A DNA stretch of 64,000 bases from positions 94,854 through 158,853 of the forward strand of contig LQBI01000031.1 of assembly GCA_002030045.1 (NCBI GenBank), read 5' to 3'. How positions within the stretch are numbered: the first letter of the stretch is position 1; each line of letters starts with the position of its first letter. This DNA is from Candidatus Aegiribacteria sp. MLS_C (GTDB lineage Bacteria; Fermentibacterota; Fermentibacteria; Fermentibacterales; JCC-6). Made by a program: the position numbers and the translations under genes. This document shows positions 2,001 to 45,127 of this stretch, piece after piece. The notes beneath the pieces were generated by a model, which worked only from the letters and a program-made list of their open reading frames with translations, was not told the DNA's origin and did not search any database.

Positions 2001-3427
2001 GGAGCCTGACAGCAGCTGCAGCCATCGGTCCGGTGTTCATGGTCTTCATCGCCGCGGCATGTGGCGGTTCCGGCGACGGAGGCTTGCGCGTCTCCGCCGC
2101 GGATTCGGGCACTCAGAAATTCGCGGTTTCCATTCGGGGCGACGATGTGGGCTACATGCAGCTCGACATAGAGGAGTACGGTGAGGATTCACTCCTGATA
2201 ACCCAGACCATCAGCTGGAACATGATCCTCATGGGGAACAGGCGGGACATCGAGATGTCCATGACCGCCGTCACCGATACGACCTACGACCTGGGCAGCA
2301 TGGAGATGATGATGTCCGACGGGTCCGCAGAGATCAATGTCACGGCCGTCAGGCGTGATTCCCTGCTTGTTTCCTCGATAGGCACCGCGGGCAGGGTGAT
2401 AGACAACTCGACAGTGATCGAGGGGGATTACCTCCCTGTGCTGGCCGATCTGGCATGCGCCTCCATGGATTGGACCGAGGGCCAGGAAAGGATCTTTCAG
2501 TCCTTCGATCCCGCCAGCGGAGCGGTTCTATCGGCCACCGCCCTGTGCCAGGGTTACGAGGAGATGGACCTGCTCGGCGACACAGTGGAGGCCGTAAGGC
2601 TCCAGCTGTCCCAGATGGGAACGAGCAACCTGGTCTGGGTTCACGAGGGACAGATAGTCCGTGAGTACGAAGAGGGTCTGGGAATGGAGATGACCCGTGT
2701 CCCGCCTGGACAGGGGGGGGATATAATTGCAACAACCGACCTGTACGAGGTCTTCGCTGTTTCCTCGACCCCCATAGCTGATCCCAGGTCGGTGAGGGAC
2801 AGGACATTCGTCCTCGAGGGAGACATCGACTGGTCCCTGTTCCAGCTGGACATCCCTCCACTGCAGGAGGCGAGGGGCTGCACGGTGCGGGTCTCGAACA
2901 CCGCACCGGACCTTCCGGCGGGGTTCCCTTCGCCGGCGGTTCCGGACAGCCTTGCTGACTACGTTCTTCCCGAACCCATGATACAGTCCGGGGATTCAAC
3001 GATCTGCGCCGGGGCCGCGGAAGTGACCGCCGGCAGCCGTGACGCATGGGAAGCCGCACGCAGGATCTGTTCCTTCGTCGATACTGCGGTGGAGAACACC
3101 CCCACGGTTTCCCTACCCTCCGCTGTGGACGTGATGGAAAACCTCCGCGGCGACTGCAACGAGCACACCATTCTGTTCGTGGCCATGGCCAGGGCGGTCG
3201 GACTGCCTTCGAGGATATGCGCGGGAATAGTCTACCTGGACGGCTCCTTCGGCTACCATGCATGGCCCATGGTGTGGGTGGGCGACTGGGTGGCAATGGA
3301 CCCGACCTTCGGTCAGTACCTGGCCGACGGGACACATGTGATCCTGGCCACGGGGGACCTCCAGTCCCAGTACGTTGTCAATTCCGTGATCGGAAGGCTC
3401 AGCGTCATCGAGCTGATGGAGGAGTGA
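1997..3427 (+). CDS. lipoprotein with C-terminal transglutaminase-like cysteine-protease domain
   Basis: AGGAGG RBS; ATG 1997 overlaps the wecB stop. Signal peptide plus lipobox (…FIAAAC GGS). The C-terminal CNEHTILFVAMARAVGLPSRICAGIVY…GYHAWPMVWVGDWVAMDPTFG fits a transglutaminase-like Cys/His/Asp core. Confidence 0.7.
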   Translation: MRSLTAAAAIGPVFMVFIAAACGGSGDGGLRVSAADSGTQKFAVSIRGDDVGYMQLDIEEYGEDSLLITQTISWNMILMGNRRDIEMSMTAVTDTTYDLGSMEMMMSDGSAEINVTAVRRDSLLVSSIGTAGRVIDNSTVIEGDYLPVLADLACASMDWTEGQERIFQSFDPASGAVLSATALCQGYEEMDLLGDTVEAVRLQLSQMGTSNLVWVHEGQIVREYEEGLGMEMTRVPPGQGGDIIATTDLYEVFAVSSTPIADPRSVRDRTFVLEGDIDWSLFQLDIPPLQEARGCTVRVSNTAPDLPAGFPSPAVPDSLADYVLPEPMIQSGDSTICAGAAEVTAGSRDAWEAARRICSFVDTAVENTPTVSLPSAVDVMENLRGDCNEHTILFVAMARAVGLPSRICAGIVYLDGSFGYHAWPMVWVGDWVAMDPTFGQYLADGTHVILATGDLQSQYVVNSVIGRLSVIELMEE

Positions 3428-4543
3428 ATGGCCTCAGATGCCGAGGTCCTTGCCATGAGGAAAGCCCTCAGGATGGCCTCCAAGGGCAGGGGGGCGGCAT
3501 TTCCCAATCCCATGGTGGGTGCCGTTGTCCTGGACGGGAATGGAGTCGAGGTCGGTGACGGCTTCCACCGGAAATGCGGGGAACCCCATGCCGAGACCGT
3601 GGCCCTGGCCGCGGCGGGGGACAGGGCGAGGGGAGGGACCATGGTGGTCACTCTGGAGCCCTGCTGCCATCAGGGCAGGACCGGACCCTGCACCGAGAAG
3701 ATAATCGGGGCGGGCATCTCCAGGGTCGTAGTGGCCATGCAGGACCCGGACCCGAGGGTGCACGGGGGCGGGATCAGAGCCCTGGAGGAGGCGGGCATCG
3801 ATGTGGAGACCGGTATTCTGGCGGAAAGGGCCGCCGAACTGAACCGATTCTACCTTCATTACGTGAGGACCGGCAGGAGCTGGGTCACCCTGAAGCTGGC
3901 CTTGAGCCTGGACGGCAGGGTGGCGGCAGCTGACGGCGGAAGCCGGTGGATCTCCTGCGAGGAGTCCAGGAAGACTGTCCATAAAAAGAGGGCATCGGTG
4001 TCGGCGGTCATGACCGGGGCCGGTACCGTCCGCCGTGACGACCCCCGGCTCACCGCCAGGGATCTCCCTTTCCCGCTCTGCGAACAGCCGGCAAGGGTAG
4101 TGGTGACCGGTTCCGGAGACCTGGGTGATCCGAAGAGATTCCTGTCCGCTCCGGGAAGGATAATAATAGCCCTGCCCCGGGGAGCGGGCGATCTTCCTGA
4201 GATCATTCGTGGAAGGAGTGACCTGGAGATCTGGGAGCTTCCGAAGGACAGCCGCGGCGGCGTCGACCTGAGGGAACTCCTGGCCAGGACCGCTTCACGC
4301 GGGATGGGGGAAGTGCTCTGCGAATCGGGTCCCGGTCTCGCTGCGAACCTGATGATCGAGGGACTGGTGGATTCGGTCATGTTCTTCACGGCACCGATCC
4401 TCATGGGTAACGGTGGAGTACCCGCCATCGGGGACCTTGGAGTCCGGAGCATGGATGGTGCAATAAGGCTTCGCGGCGTGAGGCGACGAAGGATCGGAAC
4501 GGATCAGCTGACGGAGGGGGAGATTGTTCACGGGTCTGATTGA
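3428..4543 (+). CDS. ribD: bifunctional diaminohydroxyphosphoribosylaminopyrimidine deaminase / 5-amino-6-(5-phosphoribosylamino)uracil reductase
   Basis: CMP/dCMP-deaminase zinc motif (HAETVAL…LEPCCHQGRTGPC) followed by an RibD reductase domain; 371 aa; ends with TGA. Confidence 0.9.
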   Translation: MASDAEVLAMRKALRMASKGRGAAFPNPMVGAVVLDGNGVEVGDGFHRKCGEPHAETVALAAAGDRARGGTMVVTLEPCCHQGRTGPCTEKIIGAGISRVVVAMQDPDPRVHGGGIRALEEAGIDVETGILAERAAELNRFYLHYVRTGRSWVTLKLALSLDGRVAAADGGSRWISCEESRKTVHKKRASVSAVMTGAGTVRRDDPRLTARDLPFPLCEQPARVVVTGSGDLGDPKRFLSAPGRIIIALPRGAGDLPEIIRGRSDLEIWELPKDSRGGVDLRELLARTASRGMGEVLCESGPGLAANLMIEGLVDSVMFFTAPILMGNGGVPAIGDLGVRSMDGAIRLRGVRRRRIGTDQLTEGEIVHGSD

Positions 4544-5135
4544 GGGTACGGGTACGGTGAGATCCCGGTCGGGAAGCTCACTGACGGTTTCCTCGCCTCT
4601 GTCCGGGGAGGTCGTGCCCGGAGACAGCTTTGCTGTGGACGGTTCCTGCCTTACGGTGACGGGTTCGGCGGCGGGTTCGATGAGTTTTCAATGTTCCGGA
4701 GAGACTCTTTCAAGGACGGTGATCCAGTGGTACACCACAGGGGTCAGGGTCAACCTGGAGAGGCCGCTGCTCCCCTCGGACAGGCTTCACGGCCACCTGG
4801 TGACGGGCCATGTGGACGAGACGGCCCGTTTACTGCGCGTTCAGAGATCCGGCGGCGGCATGACGGCATGGATCTCCTATTCCCCGGAGTCATCAGTGCT
4901 TCTCGTCCCCAGGGGATCAGTGGCCGTGAGCGGAGTGAGCCTTACGGTAGCGTCACTGGAACCCGGCATGTTCTCCGTTGCGCTGATACCGGAGACCCTT
5001 GCGAGGACAACTGCGGACGGATGGCGTCCGGGCACCAGGGTGAACCTGGAGTTCGACCTGATAGGCAAATACGTGCGGAGGCAGGCTGAAGCCGCCTCTG
5101 CTGCTGCAGGATTGAGGGATCATCTTGAAGGGTAA
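4524..5135 (+). CDS. ribE: riboflavin synthase alpha subunit
   Basis: [12 protein letters not shown]… N-terminus with a duplicated lumazine-binding half; overlaps ribD by 20 nt in another frame. Confidence 0.85.
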
Positions 5136-6363
5136 TGAGAACGGAGCGATCGCGGGGGCTCCCGAGGCCATCGAGGCCATAGCCGCCGGCAGGATGGTGG
5201 TCGTGGTGGACGACGAGAACAGAGAGAACGAGGGTGACCTGGTGATAGCAGCCCAGATGTGCGATGCCGGAGCAGTCAACTTCATGGCCATGGAGGCCAG
5301 GGGACTGATATGCCTTTCGATGGAGAGGGAAGACCTGGAGCGGCTGGGTATCCACGAGATGGTACCCCGGAACACTTCCCTCCATGATACCGCCTTCATG
5401 GTGAGCATCGACGCAAAGGAGGGCGTATCAACAGGAATCTCGGCCCACGACAGGGCCAGGACCATCGCAGTCGCCATCGATCCCTCCTCCAGGGTCGACG
5501 ACCTCGCCCGACCCGGACACATCTTCCCGCTGGCCGCCAGGCCCGGAGGTGTCCTTTCGAGGACGGGCCACACGGAGGCGGCGGTGGACCTGGCCAGACT
5601 GGCCGGGCTCGTGCCCGCCGGAGTGATCTGCGAGATAATGAACAGGGACGGTACCATGGCCAGGCTCCCCGAGCTCAGGGAATTCTGCCGGGAGCACGGG
5701 CTGGTGCTGACCACGGTTGAGGAACTGGTCCGCTACAGGCGCAGGACCGAGAAACTGGTGCGAGAGGTTGCTGCTTCAGTTCTGCCCACGGACTACGGGA
5801 CCTTCCAGCTGAGGATATTCGAGAGCATAACCGACGGAGAGGTCCATGTGGCGCTGGTGAAGGGTGAGGTGGCTGGAATGGAGAACGTGCTTGTCAGGGT
5901 GCATTCCCAGTGCCTGACAGGCGACGTGTTCGCCTCCAGGAGGTGCGACTGCGGAAGCCAGCTGCACGCCGCGCTGAGGAGGATAGAGTACGAGGGGATG
6001 GGAGTGGTACTTTACATGGCCCAGGAGGGTCGCGGGATCGGACTGGCCAACAAGATAAAGGCATACCATCTCCAGGACCATGGTCTGGACACCGTGGAGG
6101 CCAACGAGCGTCTGGGATTCGCCCCCGATCTCAGGGACTACGGTACCGGTGCGCAGATCCTGTCCGAGCTGGGCCTGTCCACCATAAGGCTCATGACGAA
6201 CAACCCGAGGAAAATAGTCGGCCTGAGGGGCTATGGGCTCGAGATCACGGAGAGGGTGGGTATCGAGGTGAAACCCACCAACGAGAACATCAGGTACCTG
6301 AGAACAAAGAAGAATAAGCTGGGACACCTGCTGGAGGAGGTCGACGATGACCTGGATACATGA
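5125..6363 (+). CDS. ribBA: bifunctional 3,4-dihydroxy-2-butanone-4-phosphate synthase / GTP cyclohydrolase II
   Basis: DHBP synthase motifs ([14 protein letters not shown]) followed by GTP cyclohydrolase II (CDCGSQL…[12 protein letters not shown]); 412 aa. Confidence 0.9.
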
Positions 6364-6868
6364 GGGGAAGCTTGACGGCGAAGGTATCAGACCGGCCATA
6401 ATCGTATCCCGTTTCAACAGTTTCATTACCGGCAAACTGCTGGAGGGCGCCCTTGACTGCCTGGAGAGACACAACGTGGACACTGACGACATCGACGTAT
6501 TCTGGGTTCCCGGCGCCTGGGAGATCCCGGCTCTCGCATTGAGGGTAGCGGACACAGGGCTGTTCGACTGCGTTATCTGTCTTGGAGCAGTCATAAGGGG
6601 CGAGACCCCTCACTTCGAGTACGTGTCCGCGGAGAGTGCCAAGGGAGTGGCCCAGGCCGCCATGCTCACGGACGTTCCGGTGGTCTACGGGATAGTCACC
6701 GCCGATACTGTGGAACAGGCAGTGGACCGGGCAGGCACAAAGTCCGGCAACAGGGGGTTCGACGCAGCCATGACGGCGCTGGAGATGACGGCCCTCTACG
6801 ACCATCTCGCCGACCTCGAGTCCTCCAGGGAGGAAGCACCCGGGGAAGAAGGGGAAGACAAGGACTGA
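6347..6868 (+). CDS. ribH: 6,7-dimethyl-8-ribityllumazine synthase
   Basis: [18 protein letters not shown]…VPGAWEIP…[14 protein letters not shown] are lumazine-synthase signatures. Confidence 0.9.
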
Positions 6869-7309
6869 ATGGGAGTCAGGAACAGATGCCGCAAAGCCCT
6901 TCTGCAGGCCAGGTTTGCCGCTGAGATAAACGGCAGGCCGATCCTGGTGAACCTGGAGTTCATACGGAGTATGCTCGAGGATCCGGAACTTGGCGTGGGC
7001 GCGCCCCTGGACGAGGAGGACTGGACCTGGATTGCGACGCTGGCCGAGGCCATCCAGGAGAATCTGGCGGAGATAAGGGAAAGGATCGGCGGATCCCTGG
7101 AGAACTGGACTCTGGACAGGCTCAGTATCGTCACCAGGCTGATACTCGAGCAGGCCATGGGAGAGATGTTCTACTGCAGTTCCCGAACGCCTGCGCCGGT
7201 GGTAATAGACGAGTCGCTTGAACTTGCCCGAATGTTCGAGGAGGATGAAGCGGCGGGGCTGATAAACGGAGTCCTTGACGCCATATCCGGAGACGGCGGG
7301 AAGGGCTGA
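6869..7309 (+). CDS. nusB: transcription antitermination factor NusB
   Basis: Starts one nt after the ribH stop. Length ~146 aa and the position downstream of ribH match the conserved ribH-nusB pairing; NusB-like helical sequence. Confidence 0.8.
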   Translation: MGVRNRCRKALLQARFAAEINGRPILVNLEFIRSMLEDPELGVGAPLDEEDWTWIATLAEAIQENLAEIRERIGGSLENWTLDRLSIVTRLILEQAMGEMFYCSSRTPAPVVIDESLELARMFEEDEAAGLINGVLDAISGDGGKG

Positions 7310-31285: not shown

Positions 31286-32158
31286 CTACCTGTTGACCAG
31301 GACGCAGTCCTCAAGGCCGACAAGTCCGAAGGACTCGCCGGCGATTGTTCCCCTGATCCTGACACCGTCCCTCGACGCCACCATGGCCGAATCGCTCGTT
31401 TCCGGGATCGCCCCCGTCATCTCGCAGGCCACGTACTTGGTGTAGATGTCACCGGACCCGGCAAGGTCCACCCTGACCGTAACGCCGTAATCCGTTGTGG
31501 AAGTCGTGGTCGAGTGGTAGTAACCCTCCACCACGACCCGGCGGCCGATCCACGTGTTGAAGAGTTCGTGGAACTCAGCGACAGGGATAGGCGTCGTACC
31601 GTTGCAGGCATAGGGGCTCGTCGCGGTACCGGGAGCCGCCTCCTCCGCACCCTGGACAAGCGAGGCACCGGTGAGCATCAGGTCCCCAGTCCAGTAGTAG
31701 TCCACGGTGCCGCGTACCGTGAGCAGCCGGTCCCCGCCCACCGGAACTCCCTGGACGGAGTCGAAGGCGAACGTGGCCAGCTCCTGGTCGCCACCGGGAG
31801 TTCCCACAAGGGCTACCTCATCCTCGATCGTCATGCTGTCGCCGTAGAAGATGCCGGGATATCCCTGCAGCGTTACCTCGAGTCCGTCCCAGGCGAAAAA
31901 GGCCTCATAGAGGGCGGCTGCACCCACCGGCGTATCTGCCGTTACCTCGGCCGGATCAAGCTTGCCCTCGGGGTAGAGGGGTTCAGGGGCAGCAGGTTCC
32001 TGTCCGGTATCCTGCTCCTGCATCGAAGCGGTCTCCGTGCTGTCCGGAGCCTCGAGTACTCCGGTGTCTCCGGAAGAATCCCCGTCGTCCTCAGGACCTC
32101 CTCCGCACGCCGGGACCATGAGCACCAGAAAAGCCATCGCAACCGCAGTTCTCTTCAT
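31286..32158 (-). CDS. lipoprotein with internally duplicated domain, unknown function
   Basis: Signal peptide plus lipobox (LVLMVPACGGG). Two similar halves (…LYEAFFAWDGLEVTLQGY… and …FHELFNTWIGRRVVVEGY…). Confidence 0.55.
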   Translation of the reverse strand: MKRTAVAMAFLVLMVPACGGGPEDDGDSSGDTGVLEAPDSTETASMQEQDTGQEPAAPEPLYPEGKLDPAEVTADTPVGAAALYEAFFAWDGLEVTLQGYPGIFYGDSMTIEDEVALVGTPGGDQELATFAFDSVQGVPVGGDRLLTVRGTVDYYWTGDLMLTGASLVQGAEEAAPGTATSPYACNGTTPIPVAEFHELFNTWIGRRVVVEGYYHSTTTSTTDYGVTVRVDLAGSGDIYTKYVACEMTGAIPETSDSAMVASRDGVRIRGTIAGESFGLVGLEDCVLVNR

Positions 32159-33243: not shown

Positions 33244-35655
33244 CTACCTGCAGACTATCACCCTGCCGGTGTGGATACCGCCGGCCGGGTCCGCGGAGCG
33301 GATCATGTACACGCCCTGAGGCACTACGGAGCTGTCCCAGGTGATGGTGTGCTGACCCGCGGCCAGCGGGCCGGAATGGATTGTGGCCACCATCCTGCCC
33401 GCGGTGTCGTAGACGGACATGCTGAAGTCACCGGTGGCGGAGAGCGAGACCGGTATGGAGAGCAGTCCCGACACCGGGTTCGGCCATGGCGTGCCAACCG
33501 AGGTGACCATGGCGCCGGGTCCCTCACCGGTTCCCATGCCGTTGATGACGCCCTCCGCGGGCAGGCAGTTGTGGGCGGTGACCATCCAGAGGATGTCGTT
33601 CAGACCACCGATGGGATCGAAGGTCAGGGTGACGCAGCCGGTGGAATCGGTGACGCCGCTGGCCCAGAGGCTGTCGTGGTAGAGGCAGACGAGGGCGTTG
33701 TTCACCGGCGCCCTGGACAGGTCCACGTAGAAAGCTGCCTCGGTGGATCCCACGGGCAAAGTGTAGGGTGGAACCACGGAGAGTTCCATCGGTACCTCCG
33801 TCCTCATGTCCATGGTCGGGTCGCCGAACCAGTGGAAGAGGTCGTAGGTCGTCTCTGCGTACCACTCCCAGCTTCCATAGGGGTTGAAGGGAGCCGCCAC
33901 GTACATCTCCATCTTGGCGGTGGTGAGGGCCTGGCCCGCCAGGTAGTTGCCGGTGGGGTCGGTGTAGAGGGCCGGAGGTGTCGTGTACTGGTCGACGAAG
34001 GATTTGTGGTGTCCGTAGGTAAGGTAGTCGTTGAAGTAGCTGTAGCTTGAGGCAGTGGCGGCAAAGACCCCTACGGCGCCGCCCTCCATCCTGAAGAAGT
34101 TCTCGGCGAAGCAGTCGCCGGAGAACTGACCCGTGAGGCAGTTGGTGCTCATGACCATGGGGGTCATGTCGCCGTTGCTCAGGCTCGACAGGTTGCTGGT
34201 GTAGAACGGGGGATCGGCCCATCCGCTGATGGACCCGTGGTCGCGGTGCTGCACCAGGAACACCCCGCCGTTGATGGCGTCGGTGATGCCCGCGGCGTTG
34301 CCGTCCCAGACTATGTCTCCGGGTACCATCTGTCCGGCGCTGGGAAGGTCGCTCCTGTAATAGTAGGGGGGCGACTGGGAGGTGTCCTTCACGTACTCGC
34401 GCTGGACCTCCTTGCCGTAGATGTTCATGTAGGTGTCGCGGACGGTTTCCAGCGTGAAGCAGAACCAGCGGGTGGCGACGGTTCCCCCGTTTGCCTGCAG
34501 CATTCCGGCGGTGAGGACGTGTCCCCAGAAGTCCGGGTCCATGAGGGGATCGAACTGCCACTTGAGTATCTTGGCCTCGACTATGGGATAATGGCTGGTC
34601 GGCGTGACGAAGCGGCTGTGGAAGATGTCCGGGAAGTAATCGGAACCGTCGACGCAGACGTACCTGTTGTCGCTGTAGCACCCGGTGGGGGCGCTGTAGC
34701 TTGTGAGGTCCCCCTGGTCGCCCACGAAGAGGACGAAGCTGGGAGGTATTACCCAGTTGTCGTAGGCGTCCTTGATGTAGTTGTAGATCTCGGTCTGGGA
34801 CCAGCTGCCGGCGGCCACGACGGCGGTGAGGTAGCCCTGCCTCATCTTGGCCTCGATGAAGGCGTCCATCATGGTGTCCACGAAGTCGTCGCCTGCTATG
34901 ATGAGCAGGTCGGCGGCGGTTATGTCCCTGGCCTGCCTTATGTTCGAAGCCCTTATCGCCTCTCCGGAAGGTATATGGATCGAGGAAGCGGCTTCTCCCA
35001 GTATGCTGGAATTGACAAGGGTCCTGTAGGTATTGCGGAAGAACCTGCTCAGAAGCCTGGGATCCACCTGCACGGAGCCTCCCAGGTCAACCGTCACTCG
35101 AAGCCTCGGGTGAACGGTCATTACCTGTGTGGCTGCATTCCAGCTGAAGGGAAGGACGGTGAAGCGTCCGATGTTGACACCCCTCATGACGCCGGCTTCC
35201 TCGAAGGCCGCGTCCTGCCGGGGATAGTTTCCCTGAGCGTACATCTCAGGAAGGTAGGTGAAGGGTACCGGGTCGTAGGAGTTGTCCGACGGAATCGGCT
35301 GCATCGGCGAAGGGGAGAACCCTTCCAGCACCACCGGTTCGCCGACGGGCTCGACGGATATCGAGACGTTCGGGGCATCCGGCAGGGCTGCCAGGAAGGA
35401 AACCTTGGGAAGCATCGGGGCGCCTTCCGTCTCGGCGTAGGGGGTCATTGAAGGTACCGAAAGCACGCTGAAGGTCTTCCCCTGCTCCGTGAAGTCGGTG
35501 TAGAAGAACCCGGGCACGGTGATGTCGACCGTGAAACCCGAAGGAGTGCATTCCACGACCTCGAGGCTGGCGTGGCCGAGGTCGGTGATTCCGAAGTCGA
35601 CCCATTCGGCCAGCGACAGGGAGGAAAGCGCTAGAAGGAGGATCAAATGTTTCAT
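33244..35655 (-). CDS. peptidase C25 (gingipain-like) with T9SS C-terminal sorting domain
   Basis: Signal peptide. Gingipain-type blocks (LLIIAGDDFVDT, VLFVGDQGDL, HRDHGS). The C-terminus SMSVYDTAGRMVATI…GVYMIRSADPAGGIHTGRVIVCR is T9SS-tail-like. Confidence 0.8.
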   Translation of the reverse strand: MKHLILLLALSSLSLAEWVDFGITDLGHASLEVVECTPSGFTVDITVPGFFYTDFTEQGKTFSVLSVPSMTPYAETEGAPMLPKVSFLAALPDAPNVSISVEPVGEPVVLEGFSPSPMQPIPSDNSYDPVPFTYLPEMYAQGNYPRQDAAFEEAGVMRGVNIGRFTVLPFSWNAATQVMTVHPRLRVTVDLGGSVQVDPRLLSRFFRNTYRTLVNSSILGEAASSIHIPSGEAIRASNIRQARDITAADLLIIAGDDFVDTMMDAFIEAKMRQGYLTAVVAAGSWSQTEIYNYIKDAYDNWVIPPSFVLFVGDQGDLTSYSAPTGCYSDNRYVCVDGSDYFPDIFHSRFVTPTSHYPIVEAKILKWQFDPLMDPDFWGHVLTAGMLQANGGTVATRWFCFTLETVRDTYMNIYGKEVQREYVKDTSQSPPYYYRSDLPSAGQMVPGDIVWDGNAAGITDAINGGVFLVQHRDHGSISGWADPPFYTSNLSSLSNGDMTPMVMSTNCLTGQFSGDCFAENFFRMEGGAVGVFAATASSYSYFNDYLTYGHHKSFVDQYTTPPALYTDPTGNYLAGQALTTAKMEMYVAAPFNPYGSWEWYAETTYDLFHWFGDPTMDMRTEVPMELSVVPPYTLPVGSTEAAFYVDLSRAPVNNALVCLYHDSLWASGVTDSTGCVTLTFDPIGGLNDILWMVTAHNCLPAEGVINGMGTGEGPGAMVTSVGTPWPNPVSGLLSIPVSLSATGDFSMSVYDTAGRMVATIHSGPLAAGQHTITWDSSVVPQGVYMIRSADPAGGIHTGRVIVCR

Positions 35656-36939: not shown

Positions 36940-37373
36940 CGGTTTCCATCAGCGTGCTGCTGAGCTTCCCCGGGGAATGCGTCGGCGAACCGGTGATATC
37001 CGGTCTTGTGCGGGAGTGCGGTCTCGAGGTGAACATCCTCCACGCACGCATAAGTCCCAGCGAGGAGGGAAGGATGCTGGCCAGGCTGGAGGGGACGGAG
37101 GATCTGATGGAAAGGGGCTTGGACTACCTTTCCCGACGGGGGGTCGGAGTAACCGTTCCGGGAACCGGCTTCATCTGGGACGAGGATCTCTGCGTGCACT
37201 GCGGAGCCTGTGCCGGCATCTGCCCCGGGGGGGCGTTCACCGTCGATCACGACACTCTCCTGGTTTCCTTCGATATGTCCGGCTGCATCCTGTGCGGGCT
37301 CTGCATGGAGGTCTGCTACTACGGGGCCGTCCAGTCGGTGGAGGATCACATGAAAGGAGGAAGCGGGAAATGA
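36936..37373 (+). CDS. NIL-domain protein fused to a 2x[4Fe-4S] ferredoxin (MA1822-like)
   Basis: NIL-like N-terminus (…GEPVISGLVRECGLEVNILHARI…GRMLARLEG) and CVHCGACAGICP…CILCGLCMEVC. Confidence 0.75.
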   Translation: MTVSISVLLSFPGECVGEPVISGLVRECGLEVNILHARISPSEEGRMLARLEGTEDLMERGLDYLSRRGVGVTVPGTGFIWDEDLCVHCGACAGICPGGAFTVDHDTLLVSFDMSGCILCGLCMEVCYYGAVQSVEDHMKGGSGK

Positions 37374-38509
37374 TGAGGAGCTGGGAGGGAATAAACGAGA
37401 GGATCGACTCGGGAAGGGTAACAGTGGTCACAGCGGAGGAGATGACGGAGATGTCCGCCTCCATTGGGGTTGCAGAGGCCTTCAGGAGAGTGGACGTCGT
37501 TACCACCGGCACATTCTCCCCCATGTGCTCCAGCGGTGTCCTTCTCAACACTGGACACCATTCACCGCGGCTCAATTACCGGAGGGCCTGGCTGAACGGT
37601 GTGCCCGCCTACTCGGGTCTGGCCGCCGTGGACCTGTACGTCGGCGCTACGGCCCGAAGGGAGTCCGGGGACCGTGGAGAGGGCGGAGAATACGGGGGAG
37701 GCCATCTGATCGAGGACCTGGTCGCGGGAAGGCAGGTGAGGCTGACCGCGGAAGGCCACGGCACCGACTGCTATCCGGGAAGGGCCGTTGAGAAGATCAT
37801 CGGCCTTCAGGAGCTGAGGGACGCGTTCCTGGTCAACCCGAGGAACTGCTACCAGAACTACAACGTGGCGGTGAACCGCTCGAAGGAGAGGACCGTCCAC
37901 ACATACATGGGACCCCTGCTGCCGGACATGAGGAACGCCTCGTACAGCAGCGCCGGCCAGCTGTCGCCGCTGATGAACGATCCGGAGTACAGGACCATCG
38001 GAATAGGCTCCAGGGTGTTCCTGGGAGGAGGCATCGGGTACGTATCCTTCAGGGGAACGCAGCACGATCCATCGGTACGGAGGACCGAGGGCGGAATACC
38101 GGAGGGAGGCGCCGGAACACTGTTCCTCACCGGGGATCTCAAAGGGATGTCCCGCGAGTTCCTAAGAGGAGTTAGAATACCAGGTTACGGTGTATCCCTT
38201 GCCGTGGGAGTAGGGACCGCCATACCTCTCCTGGACGAGGAGATGGCCCGCTGCGCAAGCGTGTCGGACAGGGAGATACCGGCCCCCGTGGTGGACTACT
38301 CCGGCGACTACCCGGAAATGAACGGGCGTATAGTGGGAACCACGGACTACGCGGCACTCAGGTCCGGCGAGATATCGCTCCTGAACAGGAGGGTAAGGAC
38401 GGTGCCCCTCTCCAGCTACCCGATGGCGAGAAGGATCGCGCTTAAGCTCCGCAGCATGGTGGAGCAAGGGCTCTTCAGGCTCTGCAGACCCTCGGCGCCG
38501 CTGGAATAG
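37370..38509 (+). CDS. COG1900/DUF39 homocysteine-biosynthesis enzyme (MA1821-like, sulfide-dependent)
   Basis: AGGAGG RBS; ATGATG start overlaps the NIL-ferredoxin stop. 379 aa; DUF39 is seen next to NIL-ferredoxin as in methanogens. Confidence 0.75.
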   Translation: MMRSWEGINERIDSGRVTVVTAEEMTEMSASIGVAEAFRRVDVVTTGTFSPMCSSGVLLNTGHHSPRLNYRRAWLNGVPAYSGLAAVDLYVGATARRESGDRGEGGEYGGGHLIEDLVAGRQVRLTAEGHGTDCYPGRAVEKIIGLQELRDAFLVNPRNCYQNYNVAVNRSKERTVHTYMGPLLPDMRNASYSSAGQLSPLMNDPEYRTIGIGSRVFLGGGIGYVSFRGTQHDPSVRRTEGGIPEGGAGTLFLTGDLKGMSREFLRGVRIPGYGVSLAVGVGTAIPLLDEEMARCASVSDREIPAPVVDYSGDYPEMNGRIVGTTDYAALRSGEISLLNRRVRTVPLSSYPMARRIALKLRSMVEQGLFRLCRPSAPLE

Positions 38510-40191: not shown

Positions 40192-41430
40192 CTACTCCCT
40201 TTCGGGAAGAAGCGAGCGCATGTTGACCGTGGAGGGTATCACCGGGTAGTCTATCACGACCCTGTAGGTCCTGAAGAGATTCGGGTCCCAGTCCAGCCTT
40301 GCGAACACATCCTCCATCATCTCGGTGTACCATGGAAGATATGGTGAGTACATGGCCCGGACGCCGAATCCCAGCTTCTGTATGGATGCCTCTATCGGAA
40401 GACAGCTGTTGGGATTGCGGAATTCCGCCGCCCTGGCCCAGTCGTAGCCGGTGAACTCCCCGAAGACGAACAACTCCGGATCCATGGGGCCTATCAGGTC
40501 CCTGTGGACTATCTGGTCGAAGACCAGCCGTTCCACAGGCGTCCTGGACCTGACCAGCACCTCCCGGTACCTGTCCTCCCTGGTCCTGTAGCTTGAGAAC
40601 ACGCTCCTGGCAACCTGTGCGGTAATGCAGGTCATTGCCTCGGTATTGCCTATGGGAGCTTCCTCCAGTTCGTGGACCACCCGTCCCTCGCATTTCCTGG
40701 AGCTTACCACGTTGGGCAGGGGCGCGGAGCAGAAGCTGTAGTAGAAAGGGACGCCCATGTGGTTCTCCGTACCCTCCGGGCATGCCTCCAGGGGCTGCAC
40801 CTGTACGAAGCTCTTCGGGACGTTCTCGTCGTCGGTGAAGTACGCCCACTCCAGGAGCCAGGGCACGTTGGGCCTGTTCCTGCGGAAATCGACGAACCCC
40901 CTGATACTGGCGATGTCATGGTACAGGCCGTCATCCGAAGGACAGAAGACCCATGTGCAGAGCTGGGTGGCGGCCTGTACTCCCAGCAGGTGGCTGTAGG
41001 CGGTGAAAGCGGCCTTCTGCTGGGACAGGAACGCCTTCGACCTGCCCTTGTCGGAGCAGGCCAGGAGCATAAGGTCGAACTCCTTCCTGCTGTCCGCATG
41101 CTTTTCAACCATCTCGTCGAAGGCCTGGCACGCTTCCCTTGCCCGTTTCAGGAGCTTCTTCGAAGTGCCGAGCTTCTTGCACAGCTTCATGAAGTTGCGG
41201 CAGGCGGCCTTGCCCGGCACGAACTGGGCGGCAAGGAAGGGGTCATCCTCGCAGATCACGTTGTAGATCTTCCATCCCAGCTTCTTGTCTATGTTCAGCT
41301 TCTTGTAGACGTCCCGCGGGTTGTCAACGGATATGTCGAGCCCGTGGAGTATCTCTCCGAGGATGTTCTTCATCATGACTACCGTGGAACTGATGTCCTC
41401 ACCGAAACACATGCTGTCGTAGTTCTCCAT
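40192..41430 (-). CDS. hypothetical cytoplasmic protein, unknown family
   Basis: Start chosen at MENYDSM, preceded by AGGAAAGGAAAA. The ORF is open to 41535, but the first 35 codons are a CCCC-containing probable non-coding stretch. Confidence 0.5.
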   Translation of the reverse strand: MENYDSMCFGEDISSTVVMMKNILGEILHGLDISVDNPRDVYKKLNIDKKLGWKIYNVICEDDPFLAAQFVPGKAACRNFMKLCKKLGTSKKLLKRAREACQAFDEMVEKHADSRKEFDLMLLACSDKGRSKAFLSQQKAAFTAYSHLLGVQAATQLCTWVFCPSDDGLYHDIASIRGFVDFRRNRPNVPWLLEWAYFTDDENVPKSFVQVQPLEACPEGTENHMGVPFYYSFCSAPLPNVVSSRKCEGRVVHELEEAPIGNTEAMTCITAQVARSVFSSYRTREDRYREVLVRSRTPVERLVFDQIVHRDLIGPMDPELFVFGEFTGYDWARAAEFRNPNSCLPIEASIQKLGFGVRAMYSPYLPWYTEMMEDVFARLDWDPNLFRTYRVVIDYPVIPSTVNMRSLLPERE

Positions 41431-41666
41431 AATCCGTTTTCCTTTCCTGAACAGGCATTTACTATGTTCGATCCGGTCAGGCGAAACAAGACTCCGGCAG
41501 CAGCAGCAATGGGGGACAATTGCAGTTCTTGACACGTTTCTGGAAACAGTCGATATTTACCTCCGTAGCCAGGACTGACAGGGAATTGCCGGTCCGGGAA
41601 CCCGAAGGCGTTGCTGCTGTTCCTTTTCATAGTCATCCTGTATGTTATTGCTCGAAAGGAGAAGAC

Positions 41667-42665
41667 ATGAGATTCACTCTTGTATTACTTTCCATTCTGG
41701 CGGCTGTGGCCCTCTCGGCCGAGAGGACCGTACTCTGGGAGTACTTCACCCAGACCGGTTGACCCACCTGCTACAGCAGCTGGTCAGCTGTTAAGAGTGC
41801 CATCAACCCCTTCCTCACCTCCGGCGATGTAGCTCCACTCTACATCTTCTACAACGGTCCCGCCGCATGTGCCTTCAACTCGACCAGGTTCAGCTTCTAC
41901 GGCGTCGGGGCGACACCCACGGTCAAGATCGACGGGCTCGCGTCCGGCTATGCGCCCTCGGGATACGCGACAGCCATCAACAACAGGCTGGCGGTCCCCT
42001 CCTACGTGGACATCGACGTTACAATGGTGGGCGATGCCTCCGGCGGCACCGCGTACATCAGTGTCACAGCCGAGGAGGAGCCCTCCCAGACCTATCCTAT
42101 CAAGGTCTGGTGCGTGATCACCGAGGACCACGACATTGCCGCCGGAACAGGCTGGGGCGGGTACACGAACATGGAGATGATGTGGCTTCCCCGTGCATGG
42201 CCACTGGGGACCCAGGGCCAGGCGCTGAACTTCACGGGCCCGTACCCGCAGACCCTGAGCGTGGCCGGGGACTACACCCTCGACCCCTCACAGCACCAGT
42301 TCGACAACCTGAACGTGACCACCTTCGTCCAGTACACATCCGGCACAAGGGAGTGTCTCAACGCCGACCATATGGACATGCCCGACACGGCTACCGGAGT
42401 CTACGGCGACGAGGAGGGTTACTCACCAGTCACGCTCCTCACCGCAGGGCCCAACCCTTCCAACGGGGCCGTCACCATCAGCTGCGGGCTTCCCGCAGGA
42501 GTGGCCGGGACGGTAAGGGTATTCGATATAACCGGCAGGATCGTGAATTCCTTCCCCGCCGGGGATGCCGTCGAAACCCAGCTGGCGGAAAGCGGCGTCT
42601 ACTTCGTGCACCTGAGCACTACCGGAGGGGAATCGGTCAGGAGACAGATCACCGTAATAAGGTAG
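41667..42665 (+). CDS. predicted selenoprotein: signal-peptide, thioredoxin-like (UxxC) N-terminal domain, T9SS C-terminal sorting domain; in-frame UGA at 41760-41762
   Basis: AAAGGAGAAG RBS and ATG 41667. Signal peptide MRFTLVLLSILAAVALSA. VLWEYFTQTG-[TGA]-PTCYSSW resembles a Trx-fold F/W-x-x-W-C-x-x-C motif with Sec in place of the first Cys. The frame stays open across the TGA for 301 more codons. The C-terminus (…VRVFDITGRIVNSF…GVYFVHLSTTGGESVRRQITVIR) is T9SS-tail-like. Confidence 0.55.
41775..41792 (+). other. candidate bacterial SECIS-like hairpin 12 nt downstream of the UGA
   Basis: AGCAGC-UGGUCA-GCUGUU, a 6-bp stem (one G-U pair) with a G/U-containing apical loop. Confidence 0.3.
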
Positions 42666-42687
42666 CAAGGCAGTTATCACTGTGGAG

Positions 42688-42725
42688 AAGGGGCGGCCGG
42701 TCCGGACGCCCCTTCGACTTTTCAT
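42688..42725 (+). terminator. intrinsic terminator after the thioredoxin-like gene
   Basis: aag-ggggcg…cgcccc-ctt stem followed by cgacttttcatt. Confidence 0.45.
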
Positions 42726-42734
42726 TCCATTCGG

Positions 42735-43157
42735 TCAGTCGTAGGTGGAGAACGCATCCCGTTCGCCGGGACTCATGCCCCAGGCGGGCATCAGGGACAG
42801 TATCTCGAGGTCGGGGTCGTCACCGAGCCTGTAGAAGGCATCGCCGTCCAGGAATATCCTCCCGTTCTTTCCACCGGTCTCCGTCAGCACCATCGAGATC
42901 TCCCGCATACCCATGTCCACGGGGCTGCCGTCCAGTCTCACGGCCTCCCGCCTGTTCAGTACCAGTTCATCGGCAGTCGAATACCATTCGCCCGTGTAGA
43001 CGATACCCTCGTTGATGGACCGGAGGAAGGCGTACTCCCCCGTCTCCCAGAAGAAGTAGCAGCTGCCGTAACCGTCGGAAACGTCGGGTTCCGAGTTCCA
43101 GAACCCCTCCAGCTCCGCAGGGGTCATTGCAAGTAGCGCGGCAAGGAACAGCATCAT
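42735..43157 (-). CDS. small secreted hypothetical protein
   Basis: 140 aa with an N-terminal signal peptide MMLFLAALLAMTPA. Confidence 0.5.
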   Translation of the reverse strand: MMLFLAALLAMTPAELEGFWNSEPDVSDGYGSCYFFWETGEYAFLRSINEGIVYTGEWYSTADELVLNRREAVRLDGSPVDMGMREISMVLTETGGKNGRIFLDGDAFYRLGDDPDLEILSLMPAWGMSPGERDAFSTYD

Positions 43158-43171
43158 GTTACCCTCCCAGG

Positions 43172-43777
43172 TCAGGTGTTGCAGAAATGCTTATCCAGGT
43201 AGTAGGCCAGAAGCCTCCTGGCCTCCTCCTCGCACTCTCCGCAGGAGGTGCCCACCTTGGTCTTCTCCTGCAGCTGGTAGTAGTTCCTGGCTCCCTCAAG
43301 GACCGCGTGCTCTATCTCGTCCTCGGTGATGTTGAGGCACTGGCAGACCACCCGTGAGCCGGTGTCGTGGACCCTGTCCTCCATACCGATGGAGCGGTAG
43401 TAGTTGTCTATAGCCCTGCGCAGGGCCTTGTCGCCGAGGACGGAGCAGTGTACCTTGTTCTCGGGGAGCCCGCCGAGCTGCTCTATGATGTCCCTGTTGG
43501 AGATTCTGTATGCGTCCTCGAGTTTCATGCCCTTCACCATCTCGGAGAGGACGGATGTGCTGGCTATGGCGCTGGCGCACCCGAAGGTCTTCCACCGGCA
43601 GTCCGTGATGGTCATCGATTCGGGGTCTATCTTCAGGTAGAAGGTCATCTCGTCGCCGCACTTGATGTTGCCGGTGGTTCCCTTCGCGTCGTACTCGAAG
43701 CCCTCCTCGTCGTACATGATGTTCTTCGGGTCCATGAAGTGCTCCTTGACCCGGTCCGAGTACAGCCAGTCGCTCAT
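43172..43777 (-). CDS. nifU: NifU-like Fe-S cluster scaffold (IscU-type N-domain plus BFD-like [2Fe-2S] domain)
   Basis: N-terminus MSDWLYSDRVKEHFMDPKN; scaffold cysteines (GNIKCGDEM…FGCASAIAS); BFD-like CQCLNITEDEI…CGEC. Confidence 0.85.
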   Translation of the reverse strand: MSDWLYSDRVKEHFMDPKNIMYDEEGFEYDAKGTTGNIKCGDEMTFYLKIDPESMTITDCRWKTFGCASAIASTSVLSEMVKGMKLEDAYRISNRDIIEQLGGLPENKVHCSVLGDKALRRAIDNYYRSIGMEDRVHDTGSRVVCQCLNITEDEIEHAVLEGARNYYQLQEKTKVGTSCGECEEEARRLLAYYLDKHFCNT

Positions 43778-44958
43778 CTGCAGCTCCCGCCCCAGGCAGT
43801 GGACATCTTCCTCAGTCTCCGCACCACGCCCGGAAGGACCTCGAGCACCCTCTCGACGTCGTCCTCCGTTGTGGACCTCCCCATGCTGATGCGAAGGGAT
43901 CCGTGACTGTACTCAACGGGAAGACCCATCTCGAGGAGCACATGGGAAGGGTCAAGGGACCCCGACGCGCATGCGGAACCGGTGGAGACCTCTATGCCCT
44001 CCATGTCGAGATACAGCAGCATGGCCTCCCCCTCGACGCCGGCGAAGGAGACGTTCAGCGTCGAATGTACGCAGTGTTCCGGGAAGCTGTTGAAGTGAAT
44101 GTCGTCTATCCTTTCAATTATTCCTTCCCTGAGCCTGCGGTTGAGGGCCTCAAGCTTCCTTCCCTCGGCTTCCATCTCCAGTCCCCTCATTTCCGCAGCG
44201 ATTCCGAATCCCGTTATTCCCAGGGTGTTCTCGGTGCCCGCCCGTCGTCCCATTTCCTGGTGGCCGCCTCGGATCAGGGGACAGAAGGGCGTGCCCCTCC
44301 TTACATAAAGAGCGCCCACCCCCTTGGGTCCGTATATCTTGTGGGCCGAGACCGTCAGGAAGTCCACTTCCAGTTCTCTAACGTCAACCGGTATCTTGCC
44401 CACGGCCTGTACGGCATCGGTGTGGAAGAGGGCTCCCGCCCTGTGGGCGAGGTCCAACGCCGTACGAACATCCTGTATCGCACCTGTCTCGTTGTTCACC
44501 ATCATGATGGAAACCAGCGACGTATCCCTGGCGAGGGCCTCCTCGAGGTCCTCCATCCTGAGCAGGCCACGTTCATCGACGCCTATCCTGGCCACGCTTG
44601 CGCCGCGGTTCTCAAGACATTTGGAGGTCTCGAGGATACACGGGTGCTCGATGGTGGAAGTGACCAGCTGGCTCTCGACCGAAGGATGGATGCCGCACTG
44701 CGCCCCGGTGCAGCCGAGGATTGACAGGACGGTGTTGTTGGCCTCGGAGCCGCTGCCCACGAACATCATATCCCCGGGTTCCGCGTTTATCAGCGCCGCC
44801 ACCCTGCCCCTTGCCTCCTCAAGCAGAGCCCTGGCCTCCCTGCCGTCGGCGTGGAGGCTGGATGGATTCCCGTAGAGGTCCATGGAGTCTATGATCGACT
44901 TCCTGACCTCGGGATGCAGTGGAGTCGTCGCGTTATGGTCCAGGTAGATCCTCTTCAT
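43774..44958 (-). CDS. nifS: cysteine desulfurase
   Basis: MKRIYLDHNATTP start; PLP lysine context SAHKIYGPKG; active-site loop STGSACAS; 4-nt overlap with nifU. Confidence 0.85.
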   Translation of the reverse strand: MKRIYLDHNATTPLHPEVRKSIIDSMDLYGNPSSLHADGREARALLEEARGRVAALINAEPGDMMFVGSGSEANNTVLSILGCTGAQCGIHPSVESQLVTSTIEHPCILETSKCLENRGASVARIGVDERGLLRMEDLEEALARDTSLVSIMMVNNETGAIQDVRTALDLAHRAGALFHTDAVQAVGKIPVDVRELEVDFLTVSAHKIYGPKGVGALYVRRGTPFCPLIRGGHQEMGRRAGTENTLGITGFGIAAEMRGLEMEAEGRKLEALNRRLREGIIERIDDIHFNSFPEHCVHSTLNVSFAGVEGEAMLLYLDMEGIEVSTGSACASGSLDPSHVLLEMGLPVEYSHGSLRISMGRSTTEDDVERVLEVLPGVVRRLRKMSTAWGGSCR

Positions 44959-45127
44959 CTTCTCTCCAGGTTCATGAAACCTCATATCCGTCGACGCCCC
45001 GTGATTATGTGCCTGCCCAACGTGAAATGCAACCGCTCATAGCCGGTTCCCCTCCATTGTCCCCGGAGCGGACCTTGGACATGTTTTCCTTCTTGGCGGT
45101 AAAAAAAAGGAAGGAACGGGGTCTCCC

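Follow-up and report, generated by a model that had tools for sequence, protein, structure and literature searches.

Introduction

Thioredoxin-fold selenoproteins with a UxxC motif (U is selenocysteine) are common, selenoproteins that act outside the cytoplasm are documented, and a family of Omp28-related selenoproteins has been curated. Here, we describe a gene at positions 41667-42665 of the forward strand in a 64-kb stretch of DNA from Candidatus Aegiribacteria sp. MLS_C (referred to as the window, i.e., the whole stretch that was analyzed), which very probably encodes a 332-residue exported, thioredoxin-like selenoprotein, with selenocysteine at UGA codon 32, of the same type as the surface oxidoreductases HBP35 and Omp28. 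An earlier note on this DNA had proposed a single gene, probably for a selenoprotein, that is split in the annotation by the UGA. The present analysis supports this proposal through a conserved TGA column, Cys-containing homologues, a hairpin that follows the UGA, the selenocysteine machinery of the lineage and the protein fold.

HBP35 of Porphyromonas gingivalis is a type IX secretion system (T9SS) cargo protein. Its CxxC motif (C48, C51) gives insulin-reducing activity, its C-terminal, non-thioredoxin part binds hemin, and loss of the protein slows growth without hemin (PMC2907840). A second related system is the thioredoxin-like UxxC selenoprotein GOS_C ("hypothetical protein GOS_C") from ocean surface metagenomes (Zhang & Gladyshev 2008, PMC2398784), which is identical to the NCBIfam family NF045500, "Omp28-related selenoprotein" (table in PMC13188914). 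The members of the Omp28 family itself (PF11551; NF033782; PDB 2R2C) are lipoproteins with Cys, whereas the family described here has a T9SS sorting domain and a predicted selenocysteine.

Selenoproteins that function beyond the cytoplasm include SaoB and SaoC, which are extracytoplasmic, as well as a TonB-dependent receptor of the FCYXU type and an outer-membrane protein of the MtrB/PioB type, both of which have signal peptides. These proteins resemble the predicted product of the window gene in having signal peptides and acting outside the cytoplasm, but differ in fold and export route, and none of them is described as T9SS cargo in the searchable literature. Because such precedents (including GOS_C) are documented, the statement in the earlier note that an exported selenoprotein would be unusual was too strong.

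A single reading frame with one internal UGA

The following features define the coding region and the predicted active site:

41667-42665 (+), complete predicted selenoprotein coding sequence, 332 codons including UGA-32
41760-41762 (+), UGA codon 32, predicted selenocysteine, first position of UxxC
41769-41771 (+), Cys35, second residue of UxxC

Translation of this region yields a single frame of 332 codons, closed by TAG at 42663-42665 and interrupted once, by TGA at 41760-41762. The residues around the internal TGA are VLWEYFTQTG-*-PTCYSSW. Two open reading frames (ORFs), one of 80 aa (41520-41762, TTG start, ending on the TGA) and one of 219 aa (42006-42665, GTG start), are thus parts of one frame with no other stop between them, as had been noted before. 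The GenBank entry covers the 219-aa part alone (hypothetical protein AVO35_06700 of MLS_C, 100% identical).

The window originates from a single metagenome-assembled genome, a circumstance in favor of a sequencing or assembly error that produced TGA in place of TGC or TGT. However, the same reads (SRR2989655) gave an identical sequence across window positions 41006-42729, including the TGA, in an independent Logan assembly, and the same codon is found in about 70 homologues from independent metagenomes. On these grounds an assembly error was rejected, and we regard its probability as negligible.

TGA is also the commonest ordinary stop in the window, where it ends 29 of the 47 long, non-overlapping ORFs, many of which directly adjoin the following gene. 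It follows that the genetic code is standard and that any recoding at codon 32 is local, as the earlier note had proposed; a change of the genetic code was discarded as an explanation, the genes being unfragmented.

Conservation of the UGA column in a family of shortened gene calls

A search of 5.8 billion proteins returned 171 relatives. The best 120 of these 171 are 204-292 residues long, and every one starts past the UGA column; signal peptides are absent from all 120, while nearly all have a T9SS sorting domain. That all of them begin beyond this column is the pattern expected if gene calls are cut at the same in-frame stop. The DNA of the relatives was collected from 64 loci in 49 assemblies, nearly all labeled Fermentibacteria, Aegiribacteria, Sabulitectum or Hyd24-12 and some only "uncultured bacterium". 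In most of these loci the tblastn alignments span query residues 1-332, i.e., they cross the TGA.

The aligned column contains TGA in 64-68 family genes (the count depends on the search pattern; at least 42 assemblies) and TAA or TAG in none. In three genes a Cys codon is found at this position, TGC in loci L053 and L055 and TGT in L057; together with the existence of distant full-length Cys forms (see below), this alignment agrees with the assignment of the UGA to a Cys-equivalent position. The UGA sits at codon 31-33 in all members, and the flanking protein sequence is kept on both sides: a signal peptide is followed by ERVVLFEYFTQTG and then by U-x-x-C, in the pattern [FY]T.TG-U-xxC. Outside the hairpin described below, codons vary synonymously, e.g., Thr at position -2 is ACC, ACT, ACA or ACG. 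Cys at position +3, which is present in all 67 aligned selenocysteine-type members, is encoded by TGC in 42 and TGT in 25, a free synonymous choice. This variation shows that the frame containing the UGA is translated throughout. At the stop usage of the window (62% TGA), the chance of finding TGA in 68 of 68 genes would be ~8e-15 when relatedness is ignored.

If the TGA were a true stop, the locus would encode a 31-residue peptide and a separate downstream protein (e.g., from the GTG at 42006), or would be a pseudogene. GenBank and other gene callers annotate the region in this way, and no stop is commoner in the window than TGA. However, the downstream products would then carry a T9SS sorting domain yet lack a signal peptide, and their first residues would fall midway through a thioredoxin fold. 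Furthermore, the stop is always TGA, the frame and the residues on both sides are kept in about 70 genes from at least 42 assemblies, and homologues have Cys at the same column. Such conservation is not expected of a pseudogene, and on this basis the interpretation as two independent ORFs or a pseudogene was dismissed; termination at this codon as the normal outcome appears highly improbable.

A search with a Cys member as query yielded six full-length Cys forms (P0247-P0252, 321-334 aa) and one distant form (P0296), and further distant full-length relatives (P0304-P0315) have Cys and show FT..GCxPC motifs. When 1.84 billion representatives were searched exhaustively, only 22 relatives emerged, which indicates that the family is small and lineage-restricted; in the searches made it was confined to Fermentibacteria. 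Several genomes have tandem arrays of two or three family copies.

A separate observation concerns the Gly codon immediately before the UGA (window 41757-41762 and equivalents), which is GGT in 62 of 62 genes and never GGC, GGA or GGG, in genomes with a GC content of about 60%. The invariant U before the UGA is not explained by the 7-bp hairpin and may reflect a context effect on recoding versus termination.

A covarying hairpin downstream of the UGA

Past the UGA, within the coding sequence, is a hairpin that resembles a bacterial selenocysteine insertion sequence (SECIS):

41775-41792 (+), SECIS-like hairpin AGCAGCU-GGUC-AGCUGUU, 15-32 nt past the U of the UGA, encoding S-S-W-S-A-V; arms 41775-41781 and 41786-41792 (7 bp), loop 41782-41785

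In an alignment of 67 selenocysteine-type genes, 93% of the hairpin cells contain standard pairs, and compensatory two-sided changes are seen in five of the seven pairs (31 cells). None of 500 shuffles reached the observed covariation or pairing, and when the 3' arm was slid as a control, pairing dropped to only 17-65%. The helix is also kept where the peptide differs: SSWSAVK is encoded by AGCAGCU-GGUC-AGCUGUU, and SSAGAVK by AGCAGCG-CGGG-CGCUGUU. Further variants among the members are GCGGCU/AGCCGU and CAGUUG/CAACUG. GGUC forms the apical loop in 49 of 68 members, others having GGCC, CGGG and similar loops, and G is found at the second loop position in 63 of 68. Synonymous sites within the helix are frozen (Ser AGC, Ser TCA, Ala GCT), in DNA with a GC content of 61%.

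The element is similar to the SECIS of the Escherichia coli fdhF type in that a hairpin with a small apical loop containing G is found soon after the UGA within the coding sequence. The GGUC loop is, we assume, the same apical tetraloop as that of fdhF, and the loop of the window hairpin is presumably displaced by about 1 nt relative to fdhF. It differs from the fdhF type in that the stem is only 7 bp and no bulged U is evident. The distance from the UGA and the loop composition fit the usual description of a bacterial SECIS, and binding of SelB is predicted from these sequence features.

In the Cys-type gene of L057 this helix is absent. The Cys-type genes of L053 (~6110-6131) and L055 (~6077-6098) have another strong, 9-bp hairpin, GUGCUUACC-CUCA-GGUAAGUGC, located 16-37 nt past the Cys codon, which might be what is left of an earlier SECIS.

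Selenocysteine machinery in the lineage

SelB was found in many Aegiribacteria and Fermentibacteria genomes. The gene order of the window (a PPC-domain protein, a 447-aa gene, the selenoprotein gene, nifU and nifS) is shared with JAFGPK01 and CAZXEF01, the two nearest relatives with this order, and both of these encode selA-selB. In other loci the machinery is found close to a family member:

L016 3076-3172 (-), tRNA-Sec gene (selenocysteine tRNA), 3 kb from a family member (ARAGORN; Rfam 75.7 bits, gathering score 47), adjoining a TonB-dependent receptor gene at 3248-5842 (-)
L051 2755-10089, selenium cluster of yedF, a 205-aa partner, a family member, selD (opposite strand), selA and selB, assigned by NCBIfam equivalogs well above cut-offs

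Most of the order yedF-partner-member-selD-selA-selB is also present in L049 (347-6080) and L050.

A competing interpretation holds that the UGA is read as Trp, Gly or Cys, through a lineage-wide change of the code or suppression that is independent of a SECIS. Some uncultured bacterial lineages have reassigned UGA, and insertion of selenocysteine at codon 32 is itself an indirect conclusion. However, the long ORFs of the window are intact with TGA as a stop, commonly beside the next gene (see above), and in-frame UGA is limited to one redox-active column in which homologues have Cys. In addition, a conserved hairpin of the SelB type follows the UGA, and SelA, SelB, SelD and tRNA-Sec are encoded in the lineage. 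We therefore consider the reading as a standard amino acid very improbable, and insertion of selenocysteine remains the preferred interpretation.

Some observations on these loci stand apart from this argument. In L016, the TonB-dependent receptor gene is divergent to the family member, which is found at 6001-6993. In the selD gene of L051 (5466-6521, -), the N-terminal motif CAG*AGK contains a stop in frame, such that, judged from this sequence, the SelD protein probably contains selenocysteine itself. In the Aegiribacteria-type loci L065, L067, L069 and L070 (e.g., L067 1-7881), rnfCDGEAB is directly followed by selA-selB and then by two UDP-glucose dehydrogenase genes, a conserved order.

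The partner gene in the selenium cluster encodes a protein of roughly 205 aa that has a signal peptide and represents another putative family of exported selenoproteins; the partner always adjoins a member of the thioredoxin-like family and is not present in the window:

L051 3708-4325 (+), partner gene
L050 1107-1712 (+), partner gene
L053 7796-8413, partner gene
L055 7791-8417, partner gene
L057 7294-7881, partner gene

Its in-frame TGA is found in the context PFCGS-U-Y.SLRYQ in L051 and L050 and NPFCH-U-NGDARRHQ in L053 and L055. The partner of L057 has Cys instead of TGA (PFCGSCALSLRYQ). For the part past the TGA, no Pfam or NCBIfam match was obtained.

Protein architecture and comparison with HBP35 and Omp28

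The 332-residue product has a predicted N-terminal signal peptide followed by three domains:

41667-41720 (+), predicted signal peptide of the Sec type (the general export pathway), MRFTLVLLSILAAVALSA, residues 1-18, with a basic residue, a hydrophobic run and A-L-S-A
41721-41996 (+), thioredoxin-fold domain, about residues 19-110
41913-41918 (+), T83-P84, likely cis-Pro loop
42003-42374 (+), beta-sandwich (immunoglobulin-like) middle domain, about residues 113-236, with a conserved FTGPYPQT motif
42450-42662 (+), T9SS type A C-terminal sorting domain, residues 262-332 (PF18962, TIGR04183)

The signal peptide was recognized by eye, as were equivalent N-termini in all family members. Pfam and NCBIfam recognize only the sorting domain in the window protein, with scores above thresholds (PF18962, 31.9 bits, gathering score 27; TIGR04183, 34.4 bits, threshold 23), in line with the C-terminal domain that the earlier note had described. 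A structure model of the Cys homologue P0247 is confident (predicted local distance difference test score, pLDDT, 88.6) and consists of a thioredoxin fold (22-111), a beta-sandwich (117-236) and a sorting domain (259-332). The CxxC motif is placed by this model at the start of helix 1 of the thioredoxin fold (beta-alpha-beta-alpha-beta-beta-alpha), i.e., at the active-site position to which the UGA had been assigned in that note. T83-P84, invariant in alignment A1, falls just before strand 3 of the model; the cis conformation is a prediction. The FTGPYPQT motif of the middle domain is likewise invariant in the alignment.

A Foldseek search with the P0247 model identified HBP35 (PDB 5Y1A, E 1.2e-13). 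On the basis of the model, the two proteins appear to share both fold and domain order, namely a thioredoxin domain, an immunoglobulin-like domain and a C-terminal sorting domain. They differ in that HBP35 has Cys where the window protein has the predicted selenocysteine, the sequence identity being about 16-17%, and in their hosts, HBP35 being found in a Bacteroidota pathogen and the window protein in a free-living Fermentibacteria anaerobe. A comparison of the family profile with PDB sequences did not reach HBP35; its matches were confined to sorting domains in further T9SS cargo proteins (gingipains and an endonuclease).

NF045500 (GOS_C) shares with the family the thioredoxin-like fold, a UxxC motif near the N-terminus and the relationship to Omp28. 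Residues 14-147 of the window protein, which span the motif, align to this model with 13.5 bits (E 0.034). Given the cut-off of 200 bits, the window protein is not a member of NF045500, and the distant Cys homologue P0296 scores 23.6 bits. GOS_C was found in ocean surface metagenomes, whereas the searches showed the present family in Fermentibacteria only. By sequence comparison, the family is a distant relative of this Omp28-related selenoprotein. The distant Cys homologues score 16-35 bits against the Pfam Omp28 family (PF11551, gathering score 34.9 bits), whereas the window protein and P0247 give no match to it; the window protein and its close relatives are below both the Pfam and the NCBIfam Omp28 thresholds.

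A number of observations weigh against the assignment as a selenoprotein. No gene of the selenocysteine machinery and no tRNA-Sec is found within the 64-kb window, where an Rfam scan yielded nothing at gathering thresholds; SelB of MLS_C is not among the SelB matches listed, and the machinery was seen in relatives only. The hairpin by itself has only modest stability (family mean -7.8 kcal/mol; window copy -7 to -7.8 kcal/mol), the 76-nt fold of 41755-41830 is no better than that of shuffled sequences (z = -0.74), and no Rfam family fits the hairpin region (nothing meaningful at E up to 10). The hairpin signal emerges only in the comparative analysis and not from the fold of a single sequence, and covariation within a coding sequence is in part confounded by conserved amino acids and by sequence relatedness. 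Furthermore, the structure model is that of a Cys homologue, about 40% identical, and not of the window protein itself.

Proposed mechanism and function

We infer the following series of events. When the ribosome reaches UGA-32, the signal peptide would probably still be inside the exit tunnel. The hairpin 15-32 nt downstream most likely recruits SelB with selenocysteinyl-tRNA, Sec-tRNA(Sec), such that selenocysteine is inserted instead of termination, and the hairpin would afterwards be translated as Ser-Ser-Trp-Ser-Ala-Val. Because the UGA is located at codon 31-33, where the signal peptide is probably still in the ribosome, recoding and targeting need not interfere with each other. Without selenium, termination would leave only a 31-residue peptide, so expression is expected to be selenium-dependent. 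The signal peptide would direct the protein across the inner membrane via the Sec translocon, and the sorting domain would direct it across the outer membrane via the T9SS, either to the cell surface, where it would be attached, or to the medium by release. Here, U32-P-T-C35 is predicted to cycle between a selenenylsulfide and the selenol/thiol form. Candidate extracellular substrates are disulfides, polysulfide or sulfur, in which the habitat abounds, selenium species, or, by analogy with HBP35, haem.

Alternatively, the protein could be a real selenoprotein whose role is capture of a ligand (haem or metal as in HBP35, or scavenging of selenium or polysulfide) rather than general disulfide reduction. 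This possibility is consistent with the hemin binding by the non-thioredoxin part of HBP35 and the slower growth without hemin upon its loss, with the invariant FTGPYPQT motif in the middle domain, and with the position of one subfamily inside the yedF-partner-member-selD-selA-selB cluster, beside a second putative exported selenoprotein. It would also fit the habitat of MLS_C, which is anoxic and rich in sulfide and polysulfide (MLS_C genome paper). However, sequence similarity to HBP35 is undetectable, and the window copy is not beside selenium genes, but between the conserved 447-aa gene and nifU/nifS. Moreover, selenoprotein genes are often found near sel genes without a role in selenium uptake. 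Taken together, ligand capture seems unlikely, albeit as a serious alternative, and we favor a surface oxidoreductase.

More speculatively, the family could be the surface part of a dedicated extracellular selenium/reactive-sulfur system in Fermentibacteria, which captures or reduces selenium or polysulfide; we consider this idea rather improbable. It may build on the T9SS secretion, the share of selenocysteine forms above 90%, the tandem arrays, the linkage of one subfamily to yedF, selD, selA and selB, and the previously undescribed partner with its C-x-x-U or C-x-U motif. If correct, selenoproteins outside the cell would supply selenium or polysulfide handling for the cell.

Relation to previous work

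Relative to the work that could be found, the new elements are a separate family, which falls short of the thresholds of existing models and joins a T9SS sorting domain to the architecture of HBP35, a share of selenocysteine forms above 90% among its members, genomes that harbor multiple copies, and a public annotation that is shortened throughout. The searchable literature contains nothing that links selenoproteins with the T9SS or with Fermentibacteria, or Omp28 with selenocysteine, and the MLS_C genome paper does not mention selenium. If the assignment is correct, this family, a selenocysteine version of the HBP35/Omp28 surface redox proteins, would be the first among selenoproteins to be described, within that literature, as cargo of type IX secretion.

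About 170-240 database entries of the family are shortened gene calls without signal peptide and active site. Reading the UGA as selenocysteine would restore a coherent protein and add a multi-copy family to the selenoproteome of Fermentibacteria, a candidate phylum that is common in anaerobic digesters and sulfidic sediments. In this family selenocysteine forms are far more numerous than Cys forms, opposite to the balance in most selenoprotein families, which is an argument for a functional need of the selenol at the cell surface. In addition, the hairpin in the Ser-Ser-Trp-Ser-Ala-Val stretch, with its frozen synonymous sites, offers about 70 natural examples for models of bacterial SECIS elements.

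Flanking signals and neighboring genes

Signals for initiation and termination around the coding sequence are as follows:

41656-41661 (+), Shine-Dalgarno sequence AAGGAG, read from the sequence, with a 5-nt spacer to the ATG at 41667
41529-41557 (+), tentative promoter-like site TTGACA-17-GATATT (consensus scan, one found, 0.4 expected; promoter types of the FCB group may differ)
42687-42715 (+), strong GC-rich hairpin 3' of the stop codon, followed by GACUUUUCAUU (RNAfold, -27.5 kcal/mol for 42666-42735)

The last of these, together with GACUUUUCAUU, is a possible terminator common to the convergent gene; it was not called in a terminator scan of the window. A listing of further recoded genes in the window was attempted and set aside as too noisy, with 205 in-frame TGAs with open flanks in DNA of 61% GC.

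The 447-aa protein (40192-41535, -), which gave no Pfam or NCBIfam match, is encoded divergently upstream of the selenoprotein gene in loci with the gene order of the window, and is 73-86% identical in the closest loci of the Aegiribacteria clade and 57% identical in L012. Just downstream of the selenoprotein gene, at 43172-44985 (-), are nifU (NifU_N and a BFD-like [2Fe-2S] domain) and a nifS-type cysteine desulfurase; this neighborhood is conserved across the Aegiribacteria clade.

At 31967-32057 (+), ARAGORN calls a tRNA-Arg(CCT) of 91 nt, for which three other loci have 77-nt versions, and Rfam finds no tRNA at this position, whether gathering thresholds or an E limit of 1 are applied; the call is probably false or refers to an aberrant gene. 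The window also contains a second gene with a T9SS type A sorting domain, at 33244-35655 (-), which encodes an 803-aa peptidase of the C25 (gingipain) family and is not the sortase PorU (19.5 vs 420 bits). Upstream of the selenoprotein gene, at 36977-38509 (+), is a homocysteine-biosynthesis (HcyBio) sulfur-incorporation gene.

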